Shown: positions 1-32,988, counted from the first letter of the stretch. The stretch: 64,000 bases of DNA from an uncultured Thermoplasmata archaeon (GCA_963842165.1 CAWJFK010000005.1:326070-390069), one strand, 5' to 3'. Made by a program: numbers and translations. The notes: generated by a model from the letters alone, not told the origin.

Positions 1-395
1 CCTCGGGTCTCGGGCAGTACGGGGCGTACGCGCTCGGCGCCGGTCTCGTGGCCGCGGCGTTCCTCGCGCTCGTCGTGATCTCGCTCGGAAGTGCCTGGGG
101 AGTGACGGAGGCGTTCGGACTTTCTCCCAAGAGCACGATCTGGATCTACGTCGTGGAGAGTCTCCCCGCGGTCGTCGTGCCGCTGCTCTTCCCCCAGCTC
201 GTGACCCTCGTGCTCGCGCTCATGGTCGCGATGGTCTTCCTGCTCATCGTTCCCGGCACGTTCGTAGGCACCCTCGTGTCGGACCCCCGCGTGATGGGGC
301 CGGACGCCTCGCGCGGGTGGTGGCGTGCGGCGTTCTGGGTCAGTCTCGGGTTCGTGGTGGCGGTCGGGGTCGTGGCCGTGGTCGTCTACGCATGA
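1..395 (+). CDS. 3' part of a polytopic membrane transporter gene, Nramp/MntH-like (5' end outside window)
   Basis: The frame of ORF 48..395 stays open to the window edge. It has several hydrophobic helices and a '...SDPRVMGPDA...' segment resembling the Nramp C-terminus. Family call is from memory only. Confidence 0.5.
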   Translation, partial: SGLGQYGAYALGAGLVAAAFLALVVISLGSAWGVTEAFGLSPKSTIWIYVVESLPAVVVPLLFPQLVTLVLALMVAMVFLLIVPGTFVGTLVSDPRVMGPDASRGWWRAAFWVSLGFVVAVGVVAVVVYA

Positions 396-1072
396 GACCG
401 GCGGCCGGGGTGGCCCGTCCCGGGGACGGCTCTCGCCCGCCGCAGGAGAATCCCATAATGCCAAGGTCCGAACTCCCAACTCTCCACCGTCTCGAGGCCG
501 GCCCGCTTCAACCGCCGCGTCGCCTCGGCCGGGGAGAGCCGAATGGGGAGCGGTGGCCCTCCCGGAGTGTCCGTCTTCTTCCAGTCGACATTGACGAGGC
601 GCCCGTCGGGCTTCAGCAGCCGCACGGCCTCGGACACGGTCGCGGGCGGAACGTCGTGCAGCACGTTCGCGAGGAGCACCACGTCGGCCAGCCCGGATTC
701 CAGCGGGATCGAGTCGACGGTACTCTGGACCGGGTAGAGCTGCGGCATCGCCTCACGATCCCGCCGTTCGCGCAACAGATCGAGCATGTCGGTGGAAAGG
801 TCCACTGCGTAGACTCGGCCCTCGGGTCCGACCCTCCGGGCAGCCTCCGCTGCGAAATACCCCGTTCCCGCGCCGAGGTCAACCACCGTTTGCCCCGGGC
901 GGAGACCGACCCTGGTCCAAAGCTTCGCGGGGTCCTGGGTGGAGCGACGGTCCGGCGCCTCGAAGATCGCCAAGGCGTCCGCGCGGGTCCAGCCCCTTCC
1001 CCCGTGAGGGCCATGGTGATGGGAAGAGTGGCGCTGTAGGTCCGAACGCTCCGGAACGGTGGGCGGGCCCAT
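386..1072 (-). CDS. class I SAM-dependent methyltransferase
   Basis: 228-aa ORF with SAM-binding motif I 'VVDLGAGTGYF' and a later 'LLKPDGRLV' motif. It has a 10-nt convergent overlap with the preceding gene. Confidence 0.8.
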   Translation of the reverse strand: MGPPTVPERSDLQRHSSHHHGPHGGRGWTRADALAIFEAPDRRSTQDPAKLWTRVGLRPGQTVVDLGAGTGYFAAEAARRVGPEGRVYAVDLSTDMLDLLRERRDREAMPQLYPVQSTVDSIPLESGLADVVLLANVLHDVPPATVSEAVRLLKPDGRLVNVDWKKTDTPGGPPLPIRLSPAEATRRLKRAGLETVESWEFGPWHYGILLRRARAVPGTGHPGRRSHA

Positions 1073-1075: not shown

Positions 1076-1507
1076 TCAGACCGCGACAGGTGGTGGGAGG
1101 GGAGTTTCGACCACGGCGCGGACTCGGACGGGGATATGCGCGCGCTCGTAGATGACGCCGGCTGGGCACGTCCGGAGGGTGATCCGGAGCGCCGTCTCGA
1201 CGTCCTCGACCGACGCGGACGTCGTCACCCGGAAGACCCCCTCGACCGACGTGATCGTCGGAGCACCCTCGGGCCGTTCCGCGTCCAGCTCCACCGTCAT
1301 CGCCTCGAACTTCAACCGCCGCTTCCTCGCGACGAGCGCGAAAATGGTCGTGATACAGCCGGCCAGCGATGGTACCGAGAGCTCCAGGGCCGACGTGCCG
1401 AGGTTGTCTCCGAGCTCGTCGTGCGGAAGGTCGACGGTCACGGCGTGCCCTCGCCCGTCGTCGACGATTGTCCGGAAACCTCCCTGCCACGTTCCGATCG
1501 CCTTCAT
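1076..1507 (-). CDS. OsmC/Ohr family peroxiredoxin-like protein
   Basis: 143-aa ORF with the two conserved Cys contexts ('LAGCITT', 'LRTCPAG') and a length typical of OsmC. Confidence 0.75.
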   Translation of the reverse strand: MKAIGTWQGGFRTIVDDGRGHAVTVDLPHDELGDNLGTSALELSVPSLAGCITTIFALVARKRRLKFEAMTVELDAERPEGAPTITSVEGVFRVTTSASVEDVETALRITLRTCPAGVIYERAHIPVRVRAVVETPLPPPVAV

Positions 1508-1771
1508 GAGCTGCGCTCAGCCTACGGTCGTCGACGCGGGTTATCCCTGTCGTCAACGGGGGTTGACCGCGAGGGTCCCACCGGCCTTCCGCCGACCCGA
1601 CCGGCCGGTGGGAACCCGGGCCGGCGTGCTACGACGTCTCATCGCCCGGGCGTGAGCCACTGACGGTGAATTCGAATTGACTGAGTCTATTAGCGTTCGA
1701 CCTCGGATGCTTCCAACATCCTGCAAGTGAGCAACTGCAGGAGGATGGAAAGCAACCAAGGGAGAGTGGAA

Positions 1772-2338
1772 ATGTCGAGCGCAACAGTCCACAACGACGT
1801 AGCGACCTTGCACAAGGACCTGGGGCTCGCCGCCGACGAGCCCGCCCTGGTCGAACCGGCCCCGAACGGGCTGTCGATGGTGGTCTTCTCGGGCGAGCTC
1901 GACAAGGTGCTCGCCGCGATGATCATCGCGAACGGCGCCGCCGCGATGGACATGCCCGTGAGTATTTTCTTCACGTTCTGGGGGCTCAACGTCCTCCGAA
2001 AGGGGGGGCCGGTCCACGTGGAGGGCAAGAAGACGATGGTCGAGGGGATGTTCGGCCGCATGATGCCACGCGGACCCGACCACCTCCAGATCTCGAAGAT
2101 GAAGATGGCCGGGCTCGGCACCCGAATGATCAAGCGGGAGATGGCGAAGAAGCATGTCTACCCGCTCACGAAGCTGATCGCGTCCGCGCAGGAGCAGGGC
2201 GTCCGGTTCATCGCGTGCACGATGTCGATGGACCTGATGGGGATCCACAAGGAGGAGCTCATTCCCGGCATCACGTACGGGAACGTCGGCTCGTTCATCG
2301 ACGCGGCCGACCACAGCCGGATCACCCTCTTCATCTAG
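1772..2338 (+). CDS. DsrE/DsrF-like (COG2210-type) sulfur-relay family protein
   Basis: ORF 1727..2338. Conserved core 'MVVFSGELDKVLAAMIIANGAAAMDMPVSIFFTFWGLN...GVRFIACTMSMDLMG'. The start at 1772 (GGAG-like RBS upstream) is preferred; alternative starts are at 1727 and 1745. Confidence 0.75.
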   Translation: MSSATVHNDVATLHKDLGLAADEPALVEPAPNGLSMVVFSGELDKVLAAMIIANGAAAMDMPVSIFFTFWGLNVLRKGGPVHVEGKKTMVEGMFGRMMPRGPDHLQISKMKMAGLGTRMIKREMAKKHVYPLTKLIASAQEQGVRFIACTMSMDLMGIHKEELIPGITYGNVGSFIDAADHSRITLFI

Positions 2339-2351
2339 GGAGAGGGCACCG

Positions 2352-2774
2352 ATGACCGCTCGCTCGGGGGGTTCGGCCCTCGGGCTCGACTCCGAGGGGT
2401 TCGAGCTCGAAGCCGACCTCATCCGCGTGCTGGCGAACCCGAAGCGGCTCATGATCGTGAGCCTGCTCGGGGCGGGACCGTGCACGGTCACCGAGATCGC
2501 CGACCGGCTCGACCTCTCGCTGCAGAACACGTCCCAGCATCTGCGGCTGATGCGGGACCAGAACATCGTCCGGGCCCGCCGCGACGGCCGCGAGGTGCGG
2601 TATGCCCTGACGAGCCCCGTCTTCTCGGAATGCTGCCAGCTGGTCCGTCGCGCCCTCCTCGCCGAGGCGAGGACGCGCCCGATCCATTTCGGCGGCGAGA
2701 GGGAAACCGCGGGAGGGGGTCGTCGGGGCGAGCCGTCGGGTCGGTCGCGCCCCTCGATCATCGTCCCGGCCTGA
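2352..2774 (+). CDS. ArsR/SmtB family transcriptional regulator
   Basis: wHTH signature 'LANPKRLMIVSLLGAGPCTVTEIADRLDLSLQNTSQHLRLMRDQNIVRARRDGREVRY'. Confidence 0.85.
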   Translation: MTARSGGSALGLDSEGFELEADLIRVLANPKRLMIVSLLGAGPCTVTEIADRLDLSLQNTSQHLRLMRDQNIVRARRDGREVRYALTSPVFSECCQLVRRALLAEARTRPIHFGGERETAGGGRRGEPSGRSRPSIIVPA

Positions 2775-2793
2775 ATCGCGGAGGAAGAGAACC

Positions 2794-3049
2794 ATGAACA
2801 TCGAAGAACTGAGGGCCCTCAAGGTCGACAAGGTCGTGGACGCGCGCGGCGTGGCCTGCCCCGGTCCGCTGCTGGAAGCGAAGCGCATGGTGCCGTCCGT
2901 GCCGATGCGGGGCGTGATGGAGGTGATCTCCTCGGACGAGGGGACCACGGAGGACGTCCCGCTCTGGGCCCGGAAGGTGGGGCACGAGTACCTCGGCACC
3001 GTCCCGGATGCTCGGGCTCTGGCACATCTACCTTCGACGGGGCAAGTGA
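2794..3049 (+). CDS. tusA: TusA/SirA-like sulfurtransferase (one frame change near 3012 as assembled)
   Basis: 'VDARGVACPGPLLEAKR' CPxP active-site motif. After about 3012 the typical C-terminus 'GLWHIYLRRGK*' is read in the +1 frame and ends at TGA 3047-3049. Confidence 0.75.
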
Positions 3050-3474
3050 TGCCCGAAGGGAGCGCGACCGGCCGTCGATCCCGCGTGCTGGTCTTCTCGA
3101 CGAACGCGATCTCCGACATGGGGATCGACCTCGCCGGCAGCTCCCACATGGACTACTCGCCGAACGTCCAGGTGATCGCCGTTCCCTGCTCGGGAGGGAT
3201 CAACCCCCAGTGGATCGTCCACGCGGTGCGGTCCGGGTTCGACGGGGTCTTCGTCGCGGCGGATGGGGCGGAGTGCGCCTACCTGTCCGACTGCGTCGCC
3301 CGGACCGCCCGCATCGTCGAACGATCTCAGGCCATCCTGCAGCACGAGGGCCTCGAACCCGGGCGGGTGAAGATGGCCGCGATCTGCTCGGTCTGCTCCG
3401 AGCCGTTCGTGAACCACATGAAGCAGTTCGGCAAGGCCCTCGCCGATCTCCGCCCCACCGCGGTAGAGGCCTAG
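3049..3474 (+). CDS. mvhD: MvhD-like (methyl-viologen-reducing hydrogenase delta / Hdr-associated) Fe-S protein
   Basis: ATG 3049 overlaps the reconstructed tusA stop (TGATG). 'VLVFSTNAISDMG...VIAVPCSGGINPQWIVHAVRSGFDGVFVAADGAECAY...GRVKMAAICS' matches the MvhD-family pattern. Confidence 0.7.
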   Translation: MPEGSATGRRSRVLVFSTNAISDMGIDLAGSSHMDYSPNVQVIAVPCSGGINPQWIVHAVRSGFDGVFVAADGAECAYLSDCVARTARIVERSQAILQHEGLEPGRVKMAAICSVCSEPFVNHMKQFGKALADLRPTAVEA

Positions 3475-6208
3475 ATGGCCGAGCCCGGCGCGAAGCCGCA
3501 GTACGACGCCCTCGTAGTTGGCGCCGGGGTCGGCGGCATGGAATCGGCCCTCACTCTCGGCGATATGGGGTTCAAGGTGCTCCTCGTCGAGAAGGAACCG
3601 AGCGTCGGCGGCCGGATGATCCTGCTCAGCAAGGTGTTCCCGACCCTCGACTGCGCGAGCTGCATCTCGACCCCGAAGATGGCGGCCGTCAACAACCATC
3701 CCAACGTCCGCCCGCTCGTCTACTCCGAGGTGGACGACATCACGCCTCGGCCCGAGGGCGGGTTCCTCGTCCATCTGACCCGAAAGCCGACGTTCGTCGA
3801 CTTCGCCAAATGCACCGGGTGCGCGATGTGCGAGGTGGCGTGCACCGTCGCCGTCCCGGACGAGTTCAACTACGACCTCGCGGCCCGCCACGCGGCCCAC
3901 ATCGCCTTCCCCCAGGCGGTCCCCAAGAAGGCCGTGATCACGCGCCGGGGGACCTCGCCCTGCTCGTTCACGTGTCCGGCGGGCGTGAAGCCCCACGGGT
4001 ACATCTCGCTCGTCCGAGCGGGGCAGCCCGACGCGGCGTTCCGCCAGCATCTCGAGGACGCCCCGCTCGTCGGTGTGCTCAGCCGAGCGTGCTACGCACC
4101 GTGCGAGGAGCAATGCTCCCGCTCCGAGCTCGAAGGGACCGTTCCCATCCGGGGTATCAAGCGGTTCATGGCCGACCGATACTATGCCGGCCACCCGGAG
4201 CCGGAGTACGGGCCGCCGTCCAACGCGAGCGGGAAAAAGGTCGCGATCGTCGGGTCGGGCCCCGCGGGGCTCGCGGCGTCCTTCTTCCTCGCCCGGGCCG
4301 GTCACGCGGTGACGGTCTTCGAGGCGGACACGGAGCCGGGCGGGATCATGCGCTGGGGGATCCCTTCCTATCGGCTGCCCAAGGACGTTCTCGCTCGAGA
4401 CCTGAAGAACATCTCCGCCCTCGGCGTCAAGATCGAGACCCGTCACCGGGTCGACTCCGTCTCCGCGCTCCAGCAGGCCGGGTTCGACGCCGTGTTCGTC
4501 GCGGCGGGAGATCGCGGCGGGCGCAAGCTGTCGGTCCCGGGGGAAGGATTCGCCGGGGTGGTCGACGCGATGGAGTTCCTCCATCGGATCAACGACGGGC
4601 ACCCCTCCGACCTCACCGGGAAGACCGTCGTGGTCATCGGTGGCGGCAACGTCGCCATCGACTCCGCGAGGAGCGCCCTCCGGCTCGGGGCGCGCTCGGT
4701 CAAGCTGTTCTGCCTCGAGTCCCGCGCGGAGATGCCCGCCCATCCCTGGGAGATTCAGGAGGCGGAGGACGAAGGGGTCCTCATCACCAACTCCTGGGGC
4801 GTGGGCAAGCTCCTCGGGGCCGAGGCGGCAGTCGAGGGCGTCGAGCTCATCCGGTGCACGTCGGTCTTCGACCGCGAGCACCGGTTCAACCCGACCTTCG
4901 ACCCGAACGTCTACGAGTCGGTGCCCGCCGAGGCGGTCATCACCGCGATCGGCCTCGCCCCGAACACCGCGCCGTTCGCCTCCGAACTGACGCTGAATCG
5001 CAACGGCACGATCCAGGTCGACCCGGAGACGCTCGCGACCTCCCTCGCCTGCGTCTTCGCCGGCGGAGATGCCGTCACCGGCCCCTCGATGATCGTGACC
5101 TCGATCGGTCAGGGGAAGCGGGCGGCGTTCCACATCGACCGTTTCCTCCGCGGGGAGACTTCCCCCGACGTTCGGTATGACGAGCGACTGCCGGTCGCGG
5201 ACCGTTCGGCGGTCGTGGCCCAGGCGCGGGAGGGAGCCTCGCGTCGCGAGCCCATCGCACTCGTCCGTACTCCGGTGGCCGAGCGGCTCACCTCCTTCGC
5301 CGAGTACCGAGGCCGCGCTCAGCGAAGCGGACGCCCGCGCGAGCGCCAACCGCTGCCTCGACTGCGGCGTCTGCTCGGAGTGCCGTCAGTGCGTGGCCGT
5401 CTGTCCCGCGAACGCGATCGACCTCGACATGAAGCCCCACCAGGAGACCGTGACGGTCGGCTCGGTGGCGATCGCGACCGGCTTCTCCCCCTTCGATGCG
5501 CGCCAGAAGCCCGCCTTCGGCTTCGGACGGTTCCCGAACGTGATCACCGGCGTGCAGATGGACCGCATCCTCGCGCCGACCCGTCCGTTCAACGCCGTCG
5601 TGCGCCCCTCCGACGGAAAGATGCCCACGAACGTCGCGTTCGTGCTCTGCACCGGATCGCGGGACGAGCAGGTCGGCAATCGCCTCTGCTCTCGCGTGTG
5701 CTGCATGTACTCGATGAAGCAGGCCCAGCTCCTCATGGGCGCCGTCCCGCTCGCGGACGTCACGATCTACTACATCGACATCCGAGCGTTCGGTAAGGGC
5801 TACGAGGAGTTCTTCCAGCAGACGAAGGGGATGAGCGTCTCCTTCACGAGGGGCAAGGTCGCCCGGATCGAGGAGACCGACTCGAACGACCTCATCGTCC
5901 ACTACGAGGACATCGAGGGCGACGGCGGCCCGAAGCAGGCCCGTCACGACATGGTCGTGCTGGCGGTCGGCCTCCTGCCGAACCAGGGCGCCTTCCGCCT
6001 CTTCCCGCAGGGAGCCCCCGCCAAGGACGCGTATTCCTACGTCCGCGAGACGGACGAGGAACTCGAGCCCGGCCAGACGAGCCTCCCCGGGGTCTTCGTC
6101 ATCGGCTCGGCGACCGCCGTGCGCGACATCCCGGACACGATCCTCCATTCCGAGGCCGCGTCCGCGCAGATCGCGGCCTACCTCAAGAAGGCGGAGGTGA
6201 AGGCATGA
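3475..6208 (+). CDS. hdrA: large HdrA-like flavoprotein with inserted GltD/NfnB-type NAD(P)H-binding module (one frame change near 5305)
   Basis: N-terminal FAD motif 'VVGAGVGGMESA' and 'FPTLDCASCI'. Fe-S motifs 'CTGCAMCEVAC' and 'CLDCGVCSECRQCVAVCP'. Internal 'KKVAIVGSGPAGLAA...GGIMRWGIPSYRLP...VVVIGGGNVAIDSAR...GGDAVTGPSMIVTSIGQGKRAA' typical of the glutamate synthase small subunit. The HdrA C-terminal part ('CSRVCCMYSMKQA') continues in ORF 5177..6208. Confidence 0.85.
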
Positions 6209-7929
6209 CCGCACGCCGGCTCGGAGTCGTCATCTGCCAGTGCGGCGGGAACATCTCGGACTACGTCGACACCGAGAAGGTCCGCGAGGCGGTCGGCCAG
6301 GACGGCACGGTTGTCTCGGCCCAGGTCCAGATGTTCGCCTGCTCCGACGCCGCGCAGCAGGCGATGATCCAGGAGATCCGGGAGAAGAAGCTGGACGGGG
6401 TCGTCGTCTGCTCCTGCTCGCCGAAGCTCCACCTGAACACATTCCGCGCGATGGCCCAGCGGGCCGGGCTCAACCCGTACGAGTACACCCAGGTCAACAT
6501 CCGCGAGCAGTGCTCGTGGGCGCACACCCACGACCGCCCGGCGGCGACCGAGAAGGCGCTCCGGCTCGTCCGGGCGGGCGTCGCCAAGACCGCGCTCTCC
6601 GTGCCGCTCGAGCGAATGCGTGTGGAGACCTTCCCGCAGACCCTCGTGGTGGGGGCGGGCGTGGCGGGGCTGCGGGCGGCGATCGCACTTTCCGACCTCG
6701 GCCTCTCGGTCCACCTCGTCGAAAAGGCGGAGAAGGCCGGCGGCCAGGTCGCCCGCTGGGGCACCCTGTTCCCGAACGACAAGGTCGGCGCGGAGCTGGT
6801 CGACGGGCTGCTCGGGGAGGTCCGGCGGCGCGACAACGTGACCCTCTACCTCTCGACCGAGCTCGTCGCGAAGGAGGGCCGCATCGGAGACTTTGCCGTC
6901 CAGCTCCGGACCAGGACCGGCGACACGATCTCGCTCAAAGTCGGGGCGATCGTCGTCGCGACCGGGTTCGACCCGTACACGCCGGCGACCGGGGAGTTCG
7001 GGTTCGGGCTCGAGGGCGTGGTCACGCTCCCGGAGTTCAAGGAGCTCCTCGCGAACCACGCGGGGCCGCTCGAGTACCGGGGCCGGGCGGTCCGCACCGT
7101 TGTCTACGTCTACTGCGTCGGCTCCCGGCAGGAGACGAAGGAGTCCGACCCCCACCTCTACTGCTCCCGCTACTGCTGCAGCGCCACGTCCCACATCGCG
7201 ACGGTCGCGAGCGCCCGCGACCCGACCCTCCACCAGTTCCACCTGTTCCGCGACGTGCGGACCTACGGCAAGTACGAGGCCCTCTACGAGCGCGCCCTGC
7301 GGTCGGGCTCGCTGTTCCTGCGCTACGGCGACGACGCCCCGCCCACCGTGACGCGCGACGACCGCGGGCTCGTCGTGAAGGTCAAGGACCGGCTCATGCG
7401 CGGCGAGGAGGTCGAGGTCCGTCCCGACCTCGTCGTGCTCGTCACGGGAATGGTCCCCCGGGAGAACGGCGCGCTCGCGAACGCCCTCAAGCTGCCGGTC
7501 GGCCAGGACGGGTTCTTCCACGAGATCCACGTGAAACTGCGGCCGGTCGAGACGGTCATCGACGGGGTTTTCATCGTCGGGGCTGCCCAGGGACCCAAGA
7601 ACGTCGCCGAGAGCGTCGCGAGCTCGCTGGCCGCGGTCTCGAAGACGGGCGCCCTGCTGATGAAGGGGTACGTCGACCTCGACCCGCTCGTCGCGAAGGT
7701 CGACCCGCTCCTCTGTACCTGGTGCGACGAGTGCACGAAGGCGTGCCCGTACGGCGCCGTCGAGCCGATGGGGTACGGCGACAAGCGGGTCGCCGTCATC
7801 AACGGGGTGCTCTGCAAGGGCGAAGGGGCGTGCGTTCCCGTCTGCCCGAAGCAGGCGGTCTCCGTCCAAGGCTACACCAACGATCAGATCACCGCGATGA
7901 TCGACGCGCTTGCGAAGGAGGCCGCATGA
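6205..7929 (+). CDS. hdrA: HdrA-like FAD/Fe-S oxidoreductase (second copy, intact)
   Basis: 574-aa ORF with an ATGA overlap with the upstream gene. Motifs 'VVICQCGGNI', 'LVVGAGVAGLRAA', 'CSRYCCSATSH', and a C-terminal ferredoxin pair 'CTWCDECTKACP...CKGEGACVPVCP'. Confidence 0.85.
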   Translation: MTARRLGVVICQCGGNISDYVDTEKVREAVGQDGTVVSAQVQMFACSDAAQQAMIQEIREKKLDGVVVCSCSPKLHLNTFRAMAQRAGLNPYEYTQVNIREQCSWAHTHDRPAATEKALRLVRAGVAKTALSVPLERMRVETFPQTLVVGAGVAGLRAAIALSDLGLSVHLVEKAEKAGGQVARWGTLFPNDKVGAELVDGLLGEVRRRDNVTLYLSTELVAKEGRIGDFAVQLRTRTGDTISLKVGAIVVATGFDPYTPATGEFGFGLEGVVTLPEFKELLANHAGPLEYRGRAVRTVVYVYCVGSRQETKESDPHLYCSRYCCSATSHIATVASARDPTLHQFHLFRDVRTYGKYEALYERALRSGSLFLRYGDDAPPTVTRDDRGLVVKVKDRLMRGEEVEVRPDLVVLVTGMVPRENGALANALKLPVGQDGFFHEIHVKLRPVETVIDGVFIVGAAQGPKNVAESVASSLAAVSKTGALLMKGYVDLDPLVAKVDPLLCTWCDECTKACPYGAVEPMGYGDKRVAVINGVLCKGEGACVPVCPKQAVSVQGYTNDQITAMIDALAKEAA

Positions 7930-8177
7930 TCGGAAAGGCGAGCCTGCGGAACCTCGGCGAGGTGTTGCGCGACGAGATGGTCGAGCGCGACCGCGTCGCG
8001 ACGATCCTCCGCGCGGGTCCCCAGACGATCCCCGAGCTCGCCGCGGCGCTCTCGGCCCCTCCCCACGAGGTGACGAAGTGGGTCATGGCGATGCGCCGGT
8101 ACGGACGGGTCCGCGACCTGCCCAAGGCGCGGGCGGACGACTACTACCGGTACGAGCTCGTGGAGGACCGTCGATGA
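7926..8177 (+). CDS. small winged-helix-like protein of unknown function
   Basis: 83-aa ORF (tail of track ORF 6240..8177) starting at ATG 7926. It overlaps the hdrA stop, and its own stop overlaps the hdrC start. The 'TIPELAAALSAPPHEVTKWVMAMRRYGRV' segment looks HTH-like. Confidence 0.55.
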   Translation: MIGKASLRNLGEVLRDEMVERDRVATILRAGPQTIPELAAALSAPPHEVTKWVMAMRRYGRVRDLPKARADDYYRYELVEDRR

Positions 8178-8482
8178 AGGTCGACCCCGAGTTCCTGGAC
8201 CGCCTCCACCTCAGCGGCGCGTTCGACGCGCGCCTGTGCATCAACTGCGGGACGTGCACCGCGCTCTGCCCGCTCGGCGTGGAGCTCCTTCCCCGTCGCC
8301 TCTTCCGGTACGCGCTCCTCGGCAATCGCGAGGAGGTCCTCGGGCAGACCGAGACGATCTTCAGCTGCCTGCTCTGCCGCATGTGCGAGGCCAACTGCCC
8401 CGCCGGGATCCACATCGCTGAGAACGTCCGCTCCTTACGCACCTACCTCAACCGCGAGATCCACGGCCTCTCGGAGGCCTGA
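8174..8482 (+). CDS. hdrC: HdrC-like 4Fe-4S dicluster protein
   Basis: Two ferredoxin motifs, 'CINCGTCTALCP' and 'CLLCRMCEANCP'. About 100 aa. Confidence 0.8.
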   Translation: MKVDPEFLDRLHLSGAFDARLCINCGTCTALCPLGVELLPRRLFRYALLGNREEVLGQTETIFSCLLCRMCEANCPAGIHIAENVRSLRTYLNREIHGLSEA

Positions 8483-8491
8483 GGGAGAGCG

Positions 8492-9467
8492 ATGCCGGTA
8501 CCGATCCAGAGCACGCTCGGCATCCTCGGCGACAACCTGCGCCAGCGCGGGAGCGCCCTCCCGCTCGGGCGACGGACGGCGAGCGCCTGGGCGAAGGGCC
8601 TCGACCTCCCGCACGGCGGCGCCACCGTCCTCTACACGGGTCAGATGTGGCAGATGGTCCCCGCGATCAACGCGATGAGCCGCCAGCTCGGGAAGTACGA
8701 GAACGCGCGCAGCGCCTGGCTGTTCGGGTTCGCTCGGTCGATGAACCGCCTCGTGAACCTCACCCCCCTTCTCGCCCGCACGACCGCGAAGGACCGGCGG
8801 GCGTACAACGAACGGCTGCGCAACATCGTCCGGCTCCTGCGCGCGGCCGGCGTCGATTTTGGCTACCTCTACGAGAAAGACCTCTACACCGGAGCGCTGG
8901 CCCACGACGAAGGACTGGACCGTGGGTTCGTCCGGCACGCACAATACGTCCAACGGACCCTCCGCGCGGCGGGCGTCCGGTCGCTGATCACGGTGGACCC
9001 CCACACCACCAACATGCTCCGGACCGTCTATCCGAAGGTGCTGCCCGGCTTCGACCTCGAGGTGCGCAGCTATCTCGAGGTTCTCGCGGGACGCACATTC
9101 CCGCCCCTCCAGCAACTCGGGGAGAAAGCCACGATCCATGACTCGTGCGTGTACGCCCGGAACGGAAGGCGTCCTCGAACAGCCGCGACGCCTGCTCGCC
9201 GGCGGGGGCGTGACCCTCGTGGAGCCCGAGCTCTCGGGGAAGCTCACGTTCTGTTGCGGCGGACCGCTCGAGACGCTGTTCCCGGGGAAGTCGGCCGAGA
9301 TCGCCCGCCGGAGGATGGCGCAGCTCACCGCGTGCAGCCCCAACGTGGTCACGGCGTGCCCGCTGTGCCTCGCGAACCTCAACCGGGTCGTCCCGGCGGG
9401 CGCGGAGGTCCGGGACATCTCGGACTACCTCGTGCGGGCGTACTGCCCGGCCGCGGCGACCGCCTGA
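8492..9467 (+). CDS. hdrB: HdrB-like CCG-domain protein (one frame change near 9165)
   Basis: 'IHDSCVYAR' in ORF 8492.. continues as 'EGVLEQPRRLL...LTFCCGGP...ACPLCLANL' in ORF 9138..9467. These cysteine-rich CCG motifs are typical of HdrB/GlpC. Confidence 0.8.
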
Positions 9468-11868: not shown

Positions 11869-11953
11869 TGCGGGGAGAGGGATTTGAACCCACGAACCCC
11901 TACGGGACCAGACCCTGAATCTGGCGCCTTTGGCCAAGCTTGGCAATCCCCGC
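11869..11953 (-). tRNA. tRNA-Leu (anticodon CAG), class II with long variable arm
   Basis: The reverse complement reads GCGGGGATTGCCAAGCTTGGCCAAAGGCGCCAGATTCAGGGTCTGGTCCCGTAGGGGTTCGTGGGTTCAAATCCCTCTCCCCGCA. It has a 7-bp acceptor stem, anticodon arm CCAGA-TTCAGGG-TCTGG, a GTTCAAATC T-loop and no encoded CCA. Confidence 0.9.
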
Positions 11954-12021: not shown

Positions 12022-13580
12022 ATGGCCCTCCGGGCTGGCGGCCCCATGGTGGCGCGGTCGGAGGGCCGTTCGCAGGCAATCCAACGCGTGAACGCCCTGG
12101 AGCGACGCCTCGCGCCGCTCGACCGGGCGATCCTAGGGGTGGAATGGCGGCAAGCGACCGGGCGGGCCACGCGGGGCGCCGCATCGTTGCAGCTTCGACG
12201 CCTCGCCGTCTTGGCGGAACCGGGCCTCACCGAGCAACTTCGCGCCGCGATGCACGAGCTCGCCCCAGGGTCCGACCGGCGCCGCGCGGAGCTGCTGCTC
12301 CGCACGACGCGGGAGGTCCAGATCGAGCAGGCGCCGGAAATCGTGCACCTACGGGATCCCCTCGTACGCCGTATCTCCGCGTTCCACCCGACGTGGAAGG
12401 GCCGTCGAAGCAGTCGGGGCGCGCTGTGGGAGATCCAGCGGTCGAACCCCGACCGCGCCCAACGGGAGGCCGCGTGGCGGGGGAAGAATCCCTCTTCCGA
12501 CCGATGGAGCCCGCATTGGCCGGGCTCGTCGCGCTCCGGAACTCTCGAGCCCGGGAGTTCGGGTTCCGGTCGTTTCCTGAGTACCGGCTCGCGGCGGAGG
12601 GCCTGTCGGTCGCCCGGTTGCGCGAGCTCATGGACGCCGCGGCCCGCTGGGTTCCGGACGAAATGGCCCGTGCGCGCGAGGAGTTCGAGGACGCGACGGG
12701 CGAACGCGGCTGGTACCCTTGGGACGCCCACTACGCCCAGCAGCTCCGGGCGCCGATGCCCAAGGCCTCGTTCCCTGGCGACCGCATGCTGCCGGCCGTC
12801 CTCCGCGGGGTTCGGGCGTGGGGAATTCCGCCCTCCCTCCTCCGGTTCCGCGTCGACTTCCACGACCTTCCTGCGGGCGGGATCTCGCTCGCTCCAGACC
12901 CTCCGCGGGACGTGCGGGTCGTCGTCCATCCCGAAGGGGGCTGGGAGTGGTATGGCATCCTCTTTCACGAGGTCGGGCACGCGGTCGCCTCCGGGGCGGT
13001 TCGCCAGCCCTCCCACCTCCTTCGTTGGCACGAACACGTACCCGGGTTCGCCGCGATGTCCGAAGGGGAGGGCGGGTTCTTCGAAGAGATCGCGGCGACC
13101 GAGGCGTGGCTGCGGACGCGGCCGGGGCTCTCCCGGGAGCAGGTCGCGGCCGCGGTCGCGTCGGTCCGACGCAGGGTTCTCTCCAACACCGCTTGGACCG
13201 TCATTTGGATCTCCCGTGAGCTCGCGCTCTACGAGGACGGTCCTCGCGGGCCGGAGGTGGTGGCGAAACGATTGGAGCGCCGCCTGTTCGGATACGAGTC
13301 CCATGAGCCGATCTCTTTCGCCGACGGGTTCTCGGTTGAGCTCCCGCTCTACTCGCCGAGCTACTTCCTCGCGACGCTGTTCGGGTCGTCCCTCCGACGC
13401 GCGGTGCTCTCGGAGGTAGGAGGCCCGCTCTGGCCGAACCGAAAAGTTGGCCCCTGGCTCCTCCGGCACTGGATGCGGGAGGGCACGTCGTTCGACTGGA
13501 CGACGCGGCTCCGAGAGCTCACGGGCGCGCCGTTCGACGCCCGGGCTTTCCTCGCGGAGACCCGCCCGGGGACGAAGTAG
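12022..13580 (+). CDS. zinc metallopeptidase, M3 (oligoendopeptidase)-like (one frame change near 12485)
   Basis: 'FHEVGHAV' HExxH motif with a downstream 'GFFEEIA'. The N-terminal third is in ORF 12022.. and the remainder in ORF 12144..13580. The switch is at a G5 run. Confidence 0.7.
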
Positions 13581-15092: not shown

Positions 15093-16558
15093 ATGTCTCC
15101 AGCAAAGAAAGAAGCGGGCGCGCTCGACGGACCGGCGATCCTGGCGAAGCTGAGGGCCGACCACGTCCGATGGGTGCAGCTGTTCTACACCGACGTGTTC
15201 GGCGGCTACAACCAGGTGGACGTCCCGCTCCACACGCTGGACGCCGACTCGTTCGTCACGGGGGTTCCCAAGCTGGACGGCTCGTCCGTCCGCGGCTTCC
15301 GGGAGATCTTCGAGTCCGACATGCTCCTCGTCCCCGACCCGCGCACGCTCGCCTCGATCCCGTGGAACCCCGACGCGGGCGGCACGGTCCGCTTCATCTG
15401 CGACGTCCGGGTCGGCACGCACGTCCACCCCCTACGCCCACGACCCCCGGGGGGTCGCCCGGAGGGCCGAGCAGGTCCTCGCGGCCGCCGGGTACGATAC
15501 CTCCTACTGGGGGCCAGAGGTCGAGTACTTCGTCTTCGACTCGATCGAGCTCATCCCCTCCGCTCAGGGTGTGCGGGACCCCTGGGCCGGCGCCGGCTAC
15601 CTGCTCCACCAGTCGGAGGCCCCGTGGGAGACCGGACCCCAGGTCTCCACGATCCGGTTCAAGGAGGGGTACCACCGCACCCCGCCCTACGATTCGATGG
15701 TCGGGTTCCGGGCGGAGGTGTCGAACATCCTGGCCGACGACTTCCACGTCCGAATGGACGCCCACCACCACGAGGTCGCGACCAGCGGTCAGGCCGAGAT
15801 CAACATCCACTACGACGAGCTGGTCCCGACCGCGGACCACGTCCAGGACATCCGCTACGTGATCAAGAACGTGGCCCACCGCCACGGCAAGGTCGGCTGC
15901 TTCATGCCGAAGCCGATCTACGGCGACAACGCGATTGGCATGCACACCAACCAGTCGATCTGGTCGAAGGGAAAGAACGCGTTCTACGACGGGAACGACA
16001 AGTACGCCGAGATCAGCCAGACGTGCCGGTACTATGTCGGCGGCCTGATGGCCCACTCCCGCGCGATGTGCGCGATCACGAACCCGGTCACGAACTCCTA
16101 CCGGCGGCTGGTCCCCGGCGTACGAGGCGCCCGTCTTCATCGCGTGGAGCCGCGCCAACCGCTCCGCGAGCGTCCGCATCCCGTTCTACCTCAAGGGACG
16201 GCCGGAGGTCAAGCGAATCGAGTACCGGACGCCCGACCCCGCCGCCAACATCTATCTCACGGAGGCGGCGCTCGCGCTCGCCGGCCTCGACGGGATCAAG
16301 CGCAAGATCGAGCCCCCGCCCCCCGTCGACCAGGACATCTACAAGCTCACGCCGGCCCAGCGCAAGACGCTCGACATCCACGAGCTGCCAGGATCGCTCG
16401 GCGAGGCGCTCGACTGCCTCGAGTCGGACCGGGCGTTCCTCAAGCCCGCGTTCGCCGACTCGCTGCTGGACACGTACATCGAGCTCAAGCGCAAGGAGCA
16501 GCTCGAACTGAACCTGCGGCCCCATCCGTACGAGTTCTACCGGTACTTCGATGTCTAG
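15093..16558 (+). CDS. glnA: glutamine synthetase type I (two frame changes near 15428 and 16118)
   Basis: The sequence spans three frames: '...VQLFYTDVFGG...DGSSVRGF', then 'HHEVATSGQAEINIHYD...KPIYGDNAIGMHTNQS...NSYRRLVPG', then 'YEAPVFIAWSRANRSASVRIP...' ending at TAG 16556-16558. The first switch is at a C5 run; the second lies at the short runs 'ccccgg'. Confidence 0.9.
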
Positions 16559-16605
16559 GTAGGCCTTCGTCAAGTCGTTGCGCTCGCGCTTAGATAGGGC
16601 GCGCG

Positions 16606-20318: not shown

Positions 20319-21944
20319 ATGGTGGACAAGCAACCCGCCCCGCCCAACGACCTCCCCGAGCGGGAGCACCGTCTCATGCTCCCGGCGCTCGGCGACGGTC
20401 TAACGCCGCGGCACGCCAGCGGAGACACCGAGGTCCATCCTCCCACCTCCCCCGAATCGGGGGCCGAGCCTCCCAAGGAGAAGAAGGAGGCGAAGGAGCC
20501 CAAGGAGTCAAAGGACGTCAAGGACGCGAAAGAGACCAGGGAGGCGCCTCCCGAGGCCGCTCCCTCGGCGGAGGTCGAGCCGCTCCCCATCTCGATCGCG
20601 CGGCTCGTTCCGAAGCTCAAGAAGAGCGCGAAGCTGTTCGCGGAAGGCAAGAAGCACATCCCGAACTCTTCGAGCTCGCTCATCCGGGTCGCCTCCTACG
20701 ACCCGTGCCCTCCGTTCATCGCGGCGGGCAAAGGCCCGCGGATCTGGGACGAGGACGGGAACGAGTACCTCGACTTCAACCTGGGGTACGGCTGCCTCAT
20801 CAACGGGCACGCTCCCCGCGAGCAGGTCAAGGCGATCCAGGAGCGCGCCGAGCTCGGGCTCCACTTCGCGGCGCCGACCGCGCTCGAGATCGACCTCGCG
20901 GTGATGTTCCAGAAGATGGTGCCCACCGCCGAGAAGGTCGCGTTCTGCTCCAACGGCTCCGACGCGACCATGAACGCCATCCGGATCGCCCGCGCCGTCA
21001 CGGGCAAGGATGCGATCCTGAAGTTCGAGGGCCACTACCACGGCCAGCATGACTACGCGCTGATCAGCGCGGAAGCGCCTCCGATCGTCGCGGGGCTGGA
21101 CGAGTTCCCCCGTCCGCTCCCGAACTCCGCCGGGATCCCGCCCGGGGTCACGGACTACGTAATGGTCGCCCAGTACAACTCGCTCCTCTCGTTCGAGCGG
21201 ATGGTCAAGCGCTACCGCGACCGCCTCGCGTGCGTCATCCTCGAGCCCATCATGGCGAACTCGGGGATCATCGCCCCCGTCCCGGACTACCTGAAGCACC
21301 TCATCGAGATCGCGCACCAGAACGACCTGCTCGTCATTTTTGACGAGGTGTTCACGGGGTTCCGGGTCGCGCCGGGCGGTGCGCAGGAGCTCTACGGGGT
21401 CGAGCCCGACATCTCCTGCTGGGCGAAGGCGCTCGGCGGCGGGGTGACGATCTCCGCGGTCTCGGGGAAGAGCGAGTACATGGACCTCATCGCCCCCGGG
21501 CGGATCTCGTTCGGCGGCACCTACTTCGCGAACAACATCTCCCTCGCCGGAGCCCTCGCGAACCTGAAGATCCTCCACCGGGGCGGCGCGGACCTCTACG
21601 CGCGCTTTGCCCGGATGACCTCCCGCCTCGAGCACGGGCTCGAGGAGGCCGCCCACGACGCGAAGATCAACGTCCTTGTCCAGTCGGTCAACGGGATGCT
21701 GCAGTTCTTCTTCACGCGGCGGAAGAAGATCCAGAACTACCGCGAGTCGCTCCAGATCGACTGGAACCTCTACCTGCGGCACCACCAGCTCCTGCTGGAC
21801 AAGGGGATCTACATCCACCCCGACAACTACGAGCGGCTCACGTTCTCGAGCGCCCACACCGACAAGGACATCGAGAAGTTCATCTCCATCGCCCACGAGA
21901 CGTTCACGGAGCTGAAGACGCTGCCCCGGGACTACCTCCCGTAG
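20319..21944 (+). CDS. class III (GSA-aminomutase-like) PLP aminotransferase with about 100-aa Lys/Glu/Pro-rich N-terminal extension
   Basis: Intact 541-aa ORF. The conserved core starts at 'KKSAKLFAEGKKHIPNSSSS' and includes 'FCSNGSDATMNAIRIARA', 'DEVFTGFR' and 'CWAKALGGG' (PLP lysine context). Confidence 0.85.
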   Translation: MVDKQPAPPNDLPEREHRLMLPALGDGLTPRHASGDTEVHPPTSPESGAEPPKEKKEAKEPKESKDVKDAKETREAPPEAAPSAEVEPLPISIARLVPKLKKSAKLFAEGKKHIPNSSSSLIRVASYDPCPPFIAAGKGPRIWDEDGNEYLDFNLGYGCLINGHAPREQVKAIQERAELGLHFAAPTALEIDLAVMFQKMVPTAEKVAFCSNGSDATMNAIRIARAVTGKDAILKFEGHYHGQHDYALISAEAPPIVAGLDEFPRPLPNSAGIPPGVTDYVMVAQYNSLLSFERMVKRYRDRLACVILEPIMANSGIIAPVPDYLKHLIEIAHQNDLLVIFDEVFTGFRVAPGGAQELYGVEPDISCWAKALGGGVTISAVSGKSEYMDLIAPGRISFGGTYFANNISLAGALANLKILHRGGADLYARFARMTSRLEHGLEEAAHDAKINVLVQSVNGMLQFFFTRRKKIQNYRESLQIDWNLYLRHHQLLLDKGIYIHPDNYERLTFSSAHTDKDIEKFISIAHETFTELKTLPRDYLP

Positions 21945-22052
21945 GTCCTCGGCCCCCTTTTGAGCCCGAACCCGCGGATTAATAGTCATCATCCCTTGGC
22001 CGCCGGGATGGCGGTGTCGGCAGGACGGCCGGCCCCCTAACGGAGCGTTGGG

Positions 22053-23079: not shown

Positions 23080-23084
23080 GCGGA

Positions 23085-28254: not shown

Positions 28255-28398
28255 ACGAAAAACCCCCTCCAGAGGGCCGAGGTCGCCGATTCCCTGGCCC
28301 CTTGATAAGGTGTGCTAGGGTCCCTCACGGGGGGCCCGGGGACGCTCTCCGCGCCAGCCTCTTTACCGTCCCGCTCCTCGCGAGGTCGAGGTTCGGGG

Positions 28399-29894: not shown

Positions 29895-29902
29895 GAGAGG
29901 GC

Positions 29903-31358: not shown

Positions 31359-31388
<30 letters not shown>
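29903..31388 (+). pseudogene. aldehyde dehydrogenase, second tandem copy, at least 4 frame changes (about 30727, 30885, 31122, 31248); 3' end uncertain
   Basis: 'GPFNFPLNLLCHKVAPALAAGNPVVAKP', 'ILEMGGMDPFIV', 'YSGQVCTASKR', '[11 protein letters not shown]', '[12 protein letters not shown]' and '[14 protein letters not shown]' are found successively in frames 2,1,0,1,2. Confidence 0.7.
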
Positions 31389-32926
<1,538 letters not shown>

Positions 32927-32988
32927 AGGTTTCCCTCCCTGACACGGACCGAAGTGATATCACTCCTCGGGCGCCCACCGGACGGGTT

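Follow-up and report, generated by a model that had tools for sequence, protein, structure and literature searches.

Organization of the locus and assembly frameshifts

Within a 64-kb stretch of DNA from an uncultured Thermoplasmata archaeon (hereafter the window), nine genes are located on the + strand at positions 1772-9467, in the order dsrE2-like, arsR, tusA, mvhD, hdrL, hdrA, an 83-aa winged-helix gene (hyp83), hdrC and a gene for an HdrB-like CCG protein (hdrB') (Table 1). Neighbouring stop and start codons overlap or are 0-19 nt apart, an operon-like spacing, and the tusA stop and the mvhD start share 1 nt. The GC3 frame profile tracks the nine genes, the Pfam domains of the cluster comprise DrsE_2, HTH_20/HTH_5, TusA, FlpD/MvhD, Pyr_redox_2 with Fer4_20, a Fer4 dicluster and CCG, and public data hold homologues at 97-100% identity. 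Together with the codon overlaps, this confirmed the series of nine co-directional, mostly overlapping genes that had been read from the sequence in the original prediction.

Table 1. Features of the operon and of its upstream region (window coordinates).
Feature	Coordinates	Strand	Evidence
Conserved non-coding block with TATA-like TCTATTAG (1686-1693); candidate archaeal operon promoter	1667..1695	+	Conservation
Inverted repeat TTCCAACATCCTGCA-N10-TGCAGGAGGATGGAA, core CCTGCA-N10-TGCAGG; candidate ArsR operator	1711..1750	.	Co-occurrence with arsR
DsrE2-like sulfur-carrier protein, 188 aa, active-site Cys149	1772..2338	+	Pfam DrsE_2 5.7e-56
ArsR/SmtB-family regulator, 140 aa	2352..2774	+	Pfam HTH_20, HTH_5
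TusA sulfur carrier, 84 aa once the extra base at ~3013 is removed; Cys22 in CPGP	2794..3049	+	Pfam TusA 3.8e-14
MvhD-like [2Fe-2S] electron-transfer protein, 141 aa	3049..3474	+	Pfam FlpD 8.6e-28
HdrL, 910 aa once one C at 5307-5308 is removed	3475..6208	+	PDB matches to HdrA and NfnB types
HdrA, 574 aa	6205..7929	+	5ODC_A 1e-102
Small winged-helix protein hyp83, 83 aa, Cys-free	7926..8177	+	AF2 model, Foldseek
HdrC-like 2x[4Fe-4S] ferredoxin, 102 aa, shorter than canonical HdrC	8174..8482	+	Pfam Fer4_17, Fer4_8
HdrB-like CCG-fold protein HdrB', 324 aa once one A at 9161-9162 is removed	8492..9467	+	Pfam CCG

The tusA, hdrL and hdrB' genes each carry one extra base in the present assembly, a point that the original prediction had missed; in tusA it fuses the N-terminal part of TusA and MvhD into a single 226-aa ORF, and in hdrL and hdrB' it lies in a CC and an AA run, respectively. 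Over the stretches that align, the window shares 95-97% identity with two independent contigs, L086 and L084; the hdrL frameshift base is missing in L086 and the hdrB' frameshift base in L084, each gene being intact there. The TusA C-terminus, GLWHIYLRRGK followed by the stop and read in the +1 frame, agrees with that of L001, an 87% relative in which all nine genes are intact (TusA 84, MvhD 140, HdrL 910, HdrA 574, winged-helix protein 83, HdrC 102 and HdrB' 322 aa). Stop-free frame switches are widespread in the window, with glnA and an aldehyde dehydrogenase gene each broken over three frames. Because two of the bases are absent from the 95-97% identical contigs and housekeeping genes are broken too, the three operon frameshifts are assembly artefacts, not pseudogenization. 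The presence of three frameshifts inside 7.7 kb could suggest that they are real and that the cluster is decaying and non-functional in its source genome, but this is hardly credible: the contigs differ by exactly one base at the two sites, and the coding-frame GC3 signal is undiminished past each shift.

Sulfur carrier proteins and Hdr-like subunits

The DsrE2-like protein scores 189 bits with Pfam DrsE_2 (cut-off 25) and 85 bits with the NCBIfam DsrE2 equivalog (cut-off 210), and matches PDB entries 3PNX (3e-29) and 2QS7 (DsrE2B, 3e-14). TusA possesses the fold and the Cys-Pro-x-Pro signature of PF01206 (52.7 bits, cut-off 28.6) and misses the cut-off of the E. coli TusA equivalog (37 vs 78). 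The active-site cysteines are kept in 32/32 DsrE2 sequences (Cys149) and in 72 of the 73 TusA sequences (Cys22, in ACPGP), so that the claim of a DsrE-like protein accompanied by a TusA with a CPxP cysteine is borne out by both the Pfam matches and the conservation.

HdrL combines the two parts that define this protein type, an HdrA-type FAD/thioredoxin-reductase core and an NfnB/GltD-like FAD and NAD(P)H module, the latter splitting the inserted ferredoxin domain. Residues 628-909 resemble HdrA (8RVU/5ODC, 1e-98 to 1e-101), residues 161-650 resemble NfnB-type proteins (e.g. 4YLF_B, 2.8e-61), and Pfam detects Fer4_20 and Pyr_redox_2. The MvhD-like protein, whose five cysteines are invariant (72/72 sequences), and the NAD(P)H-binding module of HdrL are both as originally described. 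HdrL is devoid of the N-terminal and C-terminal HdrA domains and keeps a DCxSC motif (Cys60/Cys63), which is found in 70/70 HdrL sequences; all its FeS cysteines are likewise invariant. HdrA is composed of an N-terminal FeS domain, the FAD core and a C-terminal 2x[4Fe-4S] ferredoxin domain, without the inserted ferredoxin domain and the Cys197 equivalent: the 5ODC_A alignment falls into two blocks that skip methanogen residues 236-314, and none of 79 HdrA sequences has a cysteine at the C194/C197 columns, the remaining ligand cysteines being conserved. A Cys197 donated by a partner subunit ligates the N-terminal cluster of HdrA, and tandem HdrAs show such complementarity (PMC9012536). Based on the domain content in the PDB alignments and on the cysteine columns, HdrL and HdrA are complementary halves, one having the Cys197-type cysteine and the other the N-terminal FeS domain, a new feature from which a heterodimer is predicted. 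The "two HdrA" of the original prediction therefore stand as two HdrA-type proteins, but not as two full HdrAs. The best curated NCBIfam model for HdrA, HdrL and MvhD is HdrA2 (for MvhD, its MvhD part), with scores of 447 and 428 bits against a cut-off of 1100; overall, the HdrA models give 343-447 bits against cut-offs of 1100-1400.

The hyp83 gene is always located between hdrA and hdrC and is part of the colinear core described below. Its product has no match in Pfam or NCBIfam, but its AF2 model (pLDDT 83.6) displays an H-H-H-beta-beta layout for which Foldseek returned only generic MarR/ArsR winged-helix matches (~1e-3); the family comprises ~125 clusters among 1.8 billion representatives. 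HdrC has eight cysteines that are invariant in 73/73 sequences, and scores 46 bits with the HdrC model TIGR03290 (cut-off 160), covering only model positions 2-74 of 144.

In HdrB', Pfam CCG matches the C-terminal part only. This part holds a single intact CCG motif, composed of Cys219, Cys254, Cys255, Cys289 and Cys292, all five of which are invariant, while the N-terminal half is a pseudo-CCG domain with no cysteine in 69 sequences and with the invariant non-Cys residues Q54, Y132, D139 and D169-P170-H171-T173. Its PDB matches include EtfD (9OJN, 5.7e-19), canonical HdrB being reached only at a profile E of ~1e-5, and the AF2 model (pLDDT 81.5) retains the two-domain CCG fold, with Foldseek matches to EtfD, LutA and HdrB. 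As judged from these cysteines, HdrB' keeps one of the two noncubane-cluster (CCG) motifs, which is a new feature. With all cysteines of the other motif lost and canonical HdrB so distant, the operon does not encode the complete Hdr set that had been proposed, and the window proteins miss every equivalog cut-off in NCBIfam, all those for HdrA, HdrB and HdrC included.

Upstream region and regulation

The promoter-like block upstream of the operon, a candidate by virtue of its conservation, is kept in six Thermoplasmata loci, in which the rest of the intergenic region is unalignable. The palindrome that follows ends ~22 nt upstream of the dsrE2 ATG, and its core is unique in the window (chance expectation 0.04). 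Of the Thermoplasmata loci, 13/13 that have arsR carry it, at a constant spacing upstream of dsrE2, against 0/10 that lack arsR; this strict co-occurrence is a new feature, and the proposed ArsR control gains support from it, with the palindrome as candidate operator. The repeat could also form an RNA hairpin (folding energy -25.6 kcal/mol, z -3.8); an Rfam search with it yielded no family match.

ArsR, whose gene adjoins the module in 36 loci, is a general member of the ArsR/SmtB family (78.8 bits with the NCBIfam metalloregulator subfamily, cut-off 55). Its alpha-5 cysteine (Cys95) is kept in most cluster-linked homologues across phyla, and its second cysteine is not conserved in relatives. 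The persulfide sensors SqrR and BigR have two conserved cysteines (C41 and C107 in SqrR) that become linked by a di- to tetrasulfide; the window ArsR cysteines (C44, C94/95) align off these positions, and the BigR equivalog gives 51 bits against a cut-off of 155. CsoR/CstR-like regulators are associated with the module in four loci, and both the ArsR and the CsoR/CstR families include persulfide sensors. ArsR would repress the operon at the palindrome, which overlies the predicted transcription start, and thiol modification of the conserved alpha-5 cysteine would release it.

Conservation across archaea and bacteria

Eighty-three loci were fetched for comparison, of which 64 carry all seven core genes (tusA to hdrB'). 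The core is colinear in 63 of these 64 loci, the identities of the seven proteins are correlated (r = 0.79-0.97), and the DsrE2-like gene adjoins the core in 70 loci. The cluster is hence conserved as a unit, and not the fortuitous assemblage whose discovery would have spoken against the original prediction. Core loci span the Thermoplasmata, Chloroflexota, Bacillota, Kiritimatiellota, Actinomycetota and others, in total well over a dozen lineages of archaea and bacteria, and for this reason the block probably encodes an uncharacterised enzyme of anaerobic sulfur metabolism rather than of methanogenesis. No hydrogenase, FDH, Flx, MetF or LbpA gene recurs in the regions flanking the related loci; metF-metV lies beside the module in one Chloroflexi MAG. 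Since there is no other recurrent partner, NAD(P)H and TusA/DsrE2-bound sulfur are the only conserved candidate substrates. The spread over lineages without common low-molecular-weight thiols likewise speaks for a thiol substrate that is carried along with the module.

Comparison with known systems and alternative functions

The operon shares with methanogen MvhADG-HdrABC (5ODC) the HdrA-type FAD and FeS chemistry (HdrA 1e-102 and HdrL core ~1e-98 vs 5ODC), MvhD, a 2x[4Fe-4S] HdrC and a CCG-fold terminal subunit. In contrast, genes for MvhA/MvhG hydrogenase or FdhAB are neither present in the window nor recurrent in the related flanks, two complementary proteins divide the functions of the four-domain HdrA between them, the inserted ferredoxin domain of HdrL is interrupted by an NfnB-like NAD(P)H module, HdrC is half-length, HdrB' has one motif where methanogen HdrB has two CCG motifs and two noncubane [4Fe-4S] clusters, and TusA, DsrE2 and the winged-helix protein are added. 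An ordinary methanogen CoM-S-S-CoB heterodisulfide reductase could be suspected, as the HdrA homologues bear the label heterodisulfide reductase subunit A/A2 in their source annotations and the Methanomassiliicoccales belong to the class Thermoplasmata. This reading is close to refuted, not only by the incomplete HdrB' and the missed equivalog cut-offs but also by the lack of any hydrogenase or methanogenesis gene within the 64 kb and by close whole-module homologues in the bacterial phyla listed above; moreover, non-methanogenic Thermoplasmata orders are known to retain hdr genes. The module is present in many bacteria, and bacteria of this kind have no known synthesis of CoM or CoB. The distinction from the methanogen complex made in the original prediction thus holds, as does that from sHdr.

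Systems of the sHdr type never lack accompanying TusA and DsrE-type transferases (PMC11094781), and in their operons hdrA and hdrC2B2 are separated by a small "hyp" gene (PMC6067878). Both traits recur here, where TusA belongs to the core, a DsrE-family carrier adjoins it and the order hdrA-hyp83-hdrC-hdrB' parallels the position of hyp. They favour an sHdr-like oxidation of TusA/DsrE-delivered sulfane sulfur with electrons passing to NAD(P)+, which we nevertheless consider distinctly unlikely. Each module has a single hdrC and a single hdrB', the latter with one CCG motif, instead of the two pairs of hdrC1B1A-hyp-hdrC2B2; lbpA and lipoate ligase genes are absent from the 64-kb window and not recurrent in related flanks; and HdrA, which has both an N- and a C-terminal domain, belongs to the long methanogen type (1e-102) and not to the short sHdrA type (6TJR, 8e-31). 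The operon differs further by having HdrL and MvhD and a DsrE2-type carrier in place of DsrE3.

A large NAD(P)H-binding HdrA with MvhD and HdrABC, and without hydrogenase, also occurs in sulfate reducers (Sfum_0819-0824; HdrL of Desulfobacterium autotrophicum). The Syntrophobacter fumaroxidans HdrABC/HdrL with MvhD, whose published description includes an additional FeS protein but no gene for TusA, DsrE2 or a winged-helix protein, was detected only with sulfate and linked to DsrC (PMC5947623). In the ANME-1 HdrA-NfnB fusions (HdrA9-11), the inserted ferredoxin domain carries the same NfnB-like insertion of ~500 aa, and the ANME tandem pairs HdrA5/6 and HdrA12/13 show the same Cys197/N-terminal-domain complementarity implying a heterodimer; here, however, both are found in one operon, with TusA/DsrE2, a single-CCG HdrB' and ArsR, and in non-methane-metabolising archaea and bacteria. 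Methanosarcina HdrA2B2C2, FlxABCD-HdrABC and MetFV-HdrABC-MvhD are comparable hydrogenase-independent bifurcating systems of the HdrABC type with MvhD or an MvhD-like domain, but in this operon MvhD is unfused, no Flx or MetFV genes are conserved and HdrA2 scores are far below the cut-off. DsrK of DsrMK(JOP) acts with a single CCG-type noncubane-cluster site on DsrC-bound sulfur (trisulfide). HdrB' resembles it as a functional analogy only, in combining a single CCG site with sulfur bound to a small protein: the sequence relationship is negligible (NCBIfam DsrK model, 20 bits vs cut-off 400), HdrB' is soluble and linked to HdrC and not to a membrane complex, and the carrier is TusA/DsrE2 in place of DsrC.

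A rival reading is a general electron-bifurcating or transhydrogenase-like HdrL/HdrABC module that uses as its high-potential substrate either a small-molecule disulfide or an enzyme not linked to the operon (e.g. a DsrC-like protein, methylene-THF reductase or another thiol), with TusA/DsrE2 only assisting cofactor assembly, sensing or sulfur salvage. We regard it as plausible although unlikely. It is favoured by the S. fumaroxidans system and the ANME-1 fusions, which do without sulfur carriers, by the single metF-metV neighbourhood, and by an MvhD that is encoded without a partner and so suggests an external one; it is opposed by the tight linkage of TusA and DsrE2 to the module, down to the tusA-mvhD overlap, by their nearly invariant active cysteines, by the want of another recurrent partner and by hosts of many lineages that share no special thiol. 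The carriers might also deliver selenium, a TusA/YedF-like and a DsrE-like protein holding Se that is reduced for selenide supply. Selenoproteins exist in the DsrE-like, MvhD and HdrA families, TusA weakly matches selenium-associated YedF models, and NCBIfam "diclust_near_Sec" and YgfK are weak matches for HdrL and HdrB'; yet none of these matches comes near its cut-off, and selD, yedE and other Se genes are absent from the window and not recurrent in the flanks, making this very improbable.

Proposed function

The reading that we prefer, at about even confidence, is that the operon encodes a self-contained cytoplasmic Hdr-like FeS flavoprotein complex whose own carrier proteins would supply the thiol or sulfur substrate; it is most likely an NAD(P)H- and possibly ferredoxin-linked complex acting on the sulfane sulfur of TusA/DsrE2. 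HdrL and HdrA would form an obligate heterodimer, in which Cys63 of HdrL would take the role that Cys197 has in the methanogen enzyme and supply the missing ligand to the N-terminal [4Fe-4S] cluster of HdrA. The electron path would connect NAD(P)H at the NfnB-like module, and possibly ferredoxin as well, with the HdrA-type flavins, MvhD and HdrC, and end at the single noncubane cluster of HdrB', where the sulfane sulfur of a TusA/DsrE2 persulfide (or mixed di- or trisulfide) would be converted to sulfide, the site working as the single CCG site of DsrK does on DsrC-bound sulfur. Reduction, and not oxidation, is the direction assumed here.

The sulfane/sulfide couple, calculated from E0' = -270 mV, lies at ~-150 mV at 0.1 mM sulfide. 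At low sulfide its potential would thus be high enough to let NAD(P)H drive flavin-based bifurcation to ferredoxin, which becomes thermodynamically marginal at high sulfide. The NfnB-like module is positioned on the branch that normally leads to ferredoxin in methanogens, so NAD(P)H may not be a simple donor; MvhD has no feeding partner encoded with the module, and TusA/DsrE2 could be accessory rather than substrates. The chemistry of the original prediction, an NAD(P)H-linked reaction with a TusA/DsrE persulfide and electron bifurcation, is an inference that fits all of the evidence. The cluster ligands are all kept in MvhD, HdrC and HdrB', as are the active cysteines of TusA and DsrE2.

Gene organization and assembly quality

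The window has a G+C content of 68%, and its coding frame is sharply marked by the G+C content of third codon positions. Nine genes, all in one direction on the plus strand, occupy positions 1772 to 9467, with stop/start junctions that overlap or lie 0-19 nt apart, so that the gene list and coordinates of the original prediction are correct. The observation as such is thereby confirmed, and its interpretation is partly supported.

Features of the Hdr-like gene cluster and its upstream region (positions in the window)
Feature	Position	Strand	Evidence or description
Conserved block		1667-1695		TATA-like, promoter-like element upstream of dsrE2
Inverted repeat arms	1711-1725 and 1736-1750		palindrome upstream of dsrE2
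DsrE2-like	1772-2338	+	Pfam DrsE_2, 5.7e-56
ArsR-family regulator	2352-2774	+	Pfam HTH_20/HTH_5
TusA	2794-3049	+	Pfam TusA, 3.8e-14
MvhD	3049-3474	+	Pfam FlpD, 8.6e-28
HdrL	3475-6208	+	large HdrA-type protein including a GltD/NfnB-like part
HdrA	6205-7929	+	second HdrA-type protein
hyp83	7926-8177	+	winged-helix (wHTH) protein, 83 aa; no Pfam family match
HdrC	8174-8482	+	2x[4Fe-4S] protein
HdrB'	8492-9467	+	CCG-domain protein

Three of these genes are frame-broken in this assembly. The frame of tusA changes about 11 codons ahead of the gene end, which produces a seeming TusA-MvhD ORF of 226 aa (2794-3474), and those of hdrL and hdrB' change at positions ~5308 and ~9162, respectively. In L001, an intact related locus with 87% identity, all nine genes are unbroken, and TusA (84 aa) and MvhD (140 aa) are encoded by separate genes with a 1-base overlap; the fusion ORF was thus dismissed as a product of the frameshift. 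Two independent contigs, with 95-97% identity over the aligned stretches, possess exactly one C fewer in the CC run at 5307-5308 and exactly one A fewer in the AA run at 9161-9162, and have both genes intact. Frame-aware segmentation also revealed numerous frame switches without stop codons over all 64 kb, the genes for glutamine synthetase and for an aldehyde dehydrogenase each being scattered over three frames. Since the genes are intact in L001 and the near-identical contigs, and housekeeping genes are broken likewise, the frame breaks are, judging from these comparisons, assembly errors and not gene decay. Single-base frameshifts are many across positions 1-64000 (for example at 12022-13580, 15105-16588 and 28117-29894), and an M3-type peptidase gene is split as well; any gene call on this contig needs frame correction.

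Conservation and distribution of the module

A scanned collection with a single genome for each species yielded 232 confirmed sites with HdrA relatives, covering many archaeal and bacterial lineages; 80 loci were kept, and the fetched loci were all searched using the nine L001 proteins as queries. Of the 64 loci in which all seven genes are present, 63 have them colinear in the order TusA-MvhD-HdrL-HdrA-hyp83-HdrC-HdrB', and the identities of the seven core proteins to the reference are correlated (r = 0.79-0.97). The comparison of gene order in relatives that had been proposed for this cluster therefore shows a seven-gene core conserved as a unit. Its hosts comprise Thermoplasmata, Dehalococcoidia and other Chloroflexota, Caldisericota, Zixibacteria, Kiritimatiellota (including the isolate Pontiella sulfatireligans F21), Bacillota (including Desulfofundulus australicus DSM 11792 and Desulfallas sp. 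Bu1-1), Acidimicrobiia, Deltaproteobacteria and others. HdrA copies from archaea and bacteria are 54-66% identical to one another, suggesting that the block was moved by horizontal transfer. A plasmid search with HdrB' returned only remote LutA-like proteins (26-34% identity), and plasmid carriage is thus unsupported.

Clustering of all flanking ORFs placed a DsrE2-like gene beside the core in 70 loci and an ArsR gene in 36; beyond these two it revealed no recurrent flank genes, neither hydrogenase, formate dehydrogenase, Flx, MetFV nor LbpA. A CsoR/CstR-like regulator was found in four loci. One Chloroflexi MAG has metF and a metV-like gene (PF12225) in convergent orientation to the module, beside a CsoR/CstR-family regulator (loci L002, 13348-15444, and L003, 6465-8560), and in loci L026, L054 and L055 the module likewise has CsoR-like genes at its flank. 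Directly downstream of hdrB', four bacterial loci (L050, L051, L052 and L061) carry NuoE/NuoF/NuoG-like genes, which may represent an alternative electron-input module; one of them encodes a C-terminal GcvH-like domain, seemingly without the lipoyl-lysine motif. Two MAGs each possess two module copies on different contigs (L011 and L012; L023 and L027, the last with no detectable hdrC or hdrB'), which may be paralogous variants or strain mixtures.

Protein anatomy

The alignment of HdrA to methanogen HdrA skips the inserted ferredoxin domain, and the short sHdrA of the sulfur-oxidising system (6TJR) is matched at 8e-31 only. HdrL, 910 aa long after frame correction, has an HdrA FAD core formed by residues 1-160 and 628-909; an NfnB/GltD-like FAD and NAD(P)H module of ~490 aa interrupts the inserted ferredoxin domain, and both the N-terminal and the C-terminal HdrA domains are lacking. 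The motif DCSIC of methanogen HdrA contains Cys197, a ligand to the partner subunit's N-terminal cluster (PMC9012536). The Cys197-type motif is present in all 70 HdrL sequences (Cys60/Cys63) and missing from all 79 HdrA sequences. In the same paper, complementarity of exactly this kind is the basis on which heterodimeric HdrAs were postulated for ANME archaea and Moorella, and HdrL and HdrA would be expected to heterodimerise. The remaining FeS-ligand cysteines of HdrL, HdrA, MvhD (five) and HdrC (eight) are invariant.

HdrB' is the most divergent part of the module. Canonical HdrB was not matched by sequence search and was reached by a 42-member HdrB' profile at ~1e-5 only; the best solved relative is the mycobacterial EtfD (9OJN). 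Only five cysteines are invariant (C219, C254/C255, C289 and C292), corresponding to one CCG motif. In the N-terminal half the fold is preserved (AF2 pLDDT 81.5, with Foldseek matches to EtfD, LutA and HdrB); this half contains no cysteines, and its other invariant residues include D169-P170-H171-T173. The set is thus not the complete Hdr set with two HdrA copies of the original prediction: HdrB' has one CCG motif, and HdrA and HdrL are complementary halves. The protein hyp83 is a minimal winged helix (AF2 pLDDT 83.6) with generic MarR/ArsR-type structural matches only; a profile search of the PDB returned designed repeat/coiled-coil noise and weak HTH matches, and the family is small (~125 clusters among 1.8 billion representatives). 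The AF2 predictions were run on database proteins. Among the sulfur carriers, the CPxP cysteine is found in 72 of 73 TusA sequences and the active cysteine in all 32 DsrE2 sequences, whose relatives include 3PNX and DsrE2B (2QS7). NCBIfam equivalog cut-offs were reached by none of the nine proteins.

Candidate promoter region and probable regulation by ArsR

The intergenic region upstream of dsrE2 is unalignable except for two conserved elements, the promoter-like block and the palindrome, whose core CCTGCA-N10-TGCAGG occurs once in the window versus 0.04 times expected by chance. Among the Thermoplasmata loci, the palindrome is present in 13/13 with arsR and in 0/10 without it; its distance to the dsrE2 start is fixed at 52-57 nt in 12 of the 13, and is 33 nt in L031, the most divergent arsR locus. 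This strict co-occurrence at a fixed distance is good comparative evidence for a candidate ArsR operator across the predicted transcription start. The palindrome could alternatively form an RNA hairpin in the 5'-UTR, and such a hairpin is predicted to be stable (-25.6 kcal/mol, z -3.8), but its outer stem is not kept in relatives and Rfam gives no meaningful family match. Read as an operator, the palindrome lends support to the ArsR control of the original prediction. By comparison across loci, the module in this lineage comes under an ArsR regulator of its own. In helix alpha-5 of ArsR, a single cysteine is kept in most cluster-linked homologues. Assignment of ArsR as a SqrR/BigR-type sensor was rejected, the cysteine positions being different and the SqrR/BigR pair absent.

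Comparison with known Hdr systems

The module differs from methanogen HdrABC-MvhADG in having neither two CCG motifs nor a four-domain HdrA nor a hydrogenase, and the host metabolism which that system needs is not seen in the 64-kb window. The window contains no hydrogenase gene and no genes of methanogenesis or the Wood-Ljungdahl pathway, nor any dsr or lipoate genes. The two HdrBC pairs and the short sHdrA needed by sHdr are likewise lacking, as is LbpA in the window and among recurrent flank genes, and both distinctions drawn at the outset, from the methanogen and from the sHdr type, hold. The module fits the definition of HdrL, as well as that of complementary tandem HdrAs. Nearest to it among described systems are the HdrABC/HdrL of Syntrophobacter fumaroxidans, which was detected with sulfate only and has been tentatively tied to DsrC (PMC5947623), and the HdrA-NfnB fusions of ANME-1; TusA/DsrE2 and the wHTH gene are not reported for these, and a single-CCG HdrB is unmentioned in either source. 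No prior description of the gene set was found in the literature searched; an earlier mention elsewhere is possible. The cluster is an apparently new and widespread variant among Hdr-like bifurcating complexes.

Proposed function

The comparative sequence data establish a conserved, self-contained module that unites an asymmetric pair of HdrA-type flavoproteins, which carries an NAD(P)H module, with MvhD, HdrC, a CCG protein of a single site, a winged-helix protein and two sulfur carriers. The noncubane cluster of HdrB' would exchange electrons with NAD(P)H and perhaps, as NfnB does, with ferredoxin; the substrate at this cluster would be sulfane sulfur on TusA/DsrE2, analogous to DsrK, whose single CCG site acts on protein-bound DsrC sulfur; the sequence link between DsrK and HdrB' is negligible (NCBIfam). 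We give this model of a sulfur-carrier-linked Hdr-like complex an even chance of being correct. Homology with the methanogen wiring puts the NfnB-like module on the branch normally leading to ferredoxin, and no partner for MvhD is encoded with the module. Textbook potentials are -270 mV for S0/H2S, -320 mV for NAD(P)H and -140 mV for CoM-S-S-CoB; the sulfane/sulfide potential calculated from these is ~-150 mV at 0.1 mM sulfide, so that only low sulfide would make bifurcation to ferredoxin feasible. A more far-reaching proposal, which we consider less likely than not, sees in the module an energy-conserving sulfane-sulfur reductase of anaerobes that is self-sufficient and horizontally mobile. 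Its asymmetric HdrL-HdrA heterodimer would pass electrons from NAD(P)H by bifurcation both to ferredoxin and to a persulfide on TusA/DsrE2, which would be cleaved at the single noncubane [4Fe-4S] cluster.

To our knowledge, Hdr-type complexes are one of only four flavin-based electron-bifurcation scaffolds, and most of the non-methanogenic ones are without a known substrate; this module brings its own candidate substrate carriers. An energy-conserving sulfane-sulfur reductase would give the cryptic sulfur cycle a further, overlooked route in the cytoplasm, by which fermenters of sediment, peat and soil would gain energy from zero-valent sulfur in a quinone-independent manner, and one CCG cluster would be enough for protein-persulfide chemistry, defining a minimal CCG active site. 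Because the module is carried by cultured strains (P. sulfatireligans F21, D. australicus DSM 11792 and Desulfallas sp. Bu1-1), the role of Hdr genes in non-methanogenic Thermoplasmata and other anaerobes is directly testable; the Pontiella strains reportedly reduce elemental sulfur during fermentation.

Host and genomic context

The nearest proteins belong to MAGs labelled 'Thermoplasmata archaeon', and published work describes non-methanogenic Thermoplasmata orders that keep hdr genes with unknown substrates. Divergent upstream of the operon are genes for an OsmC-like thiol peroxidase-family protein (1076-1507, minus strand) and a class-I methyltransferase (386-1072, minus strand), an arrangement not kept in L001. 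Elsewhere in the window are genes for glutamine synthetase, amidohydrolases, several class-III aminotransferases and aldehyde dehydrogenases, a peptide ABC transporter, and phosphate-related and archaellum/pilus genes. The aminotransferases, aldehyde dehydrogenases, amidohydrolases and peptide transporter are densely grouped at 20319-36860, which suggests a heterotroph degrading amino acids or polyamines. In region 38397-52424, genes for three PstS-like PBP-domain surface proteins precede those for archaellum/pilus assembly (a FlaI-like ATPase, a FlaJ-like membrane protein and a KaiC-like ATPase). The sole RNA gene detected in the window with Rfam is a tRNA-Leu (CAG) at 11869-11953 on the minus strand.
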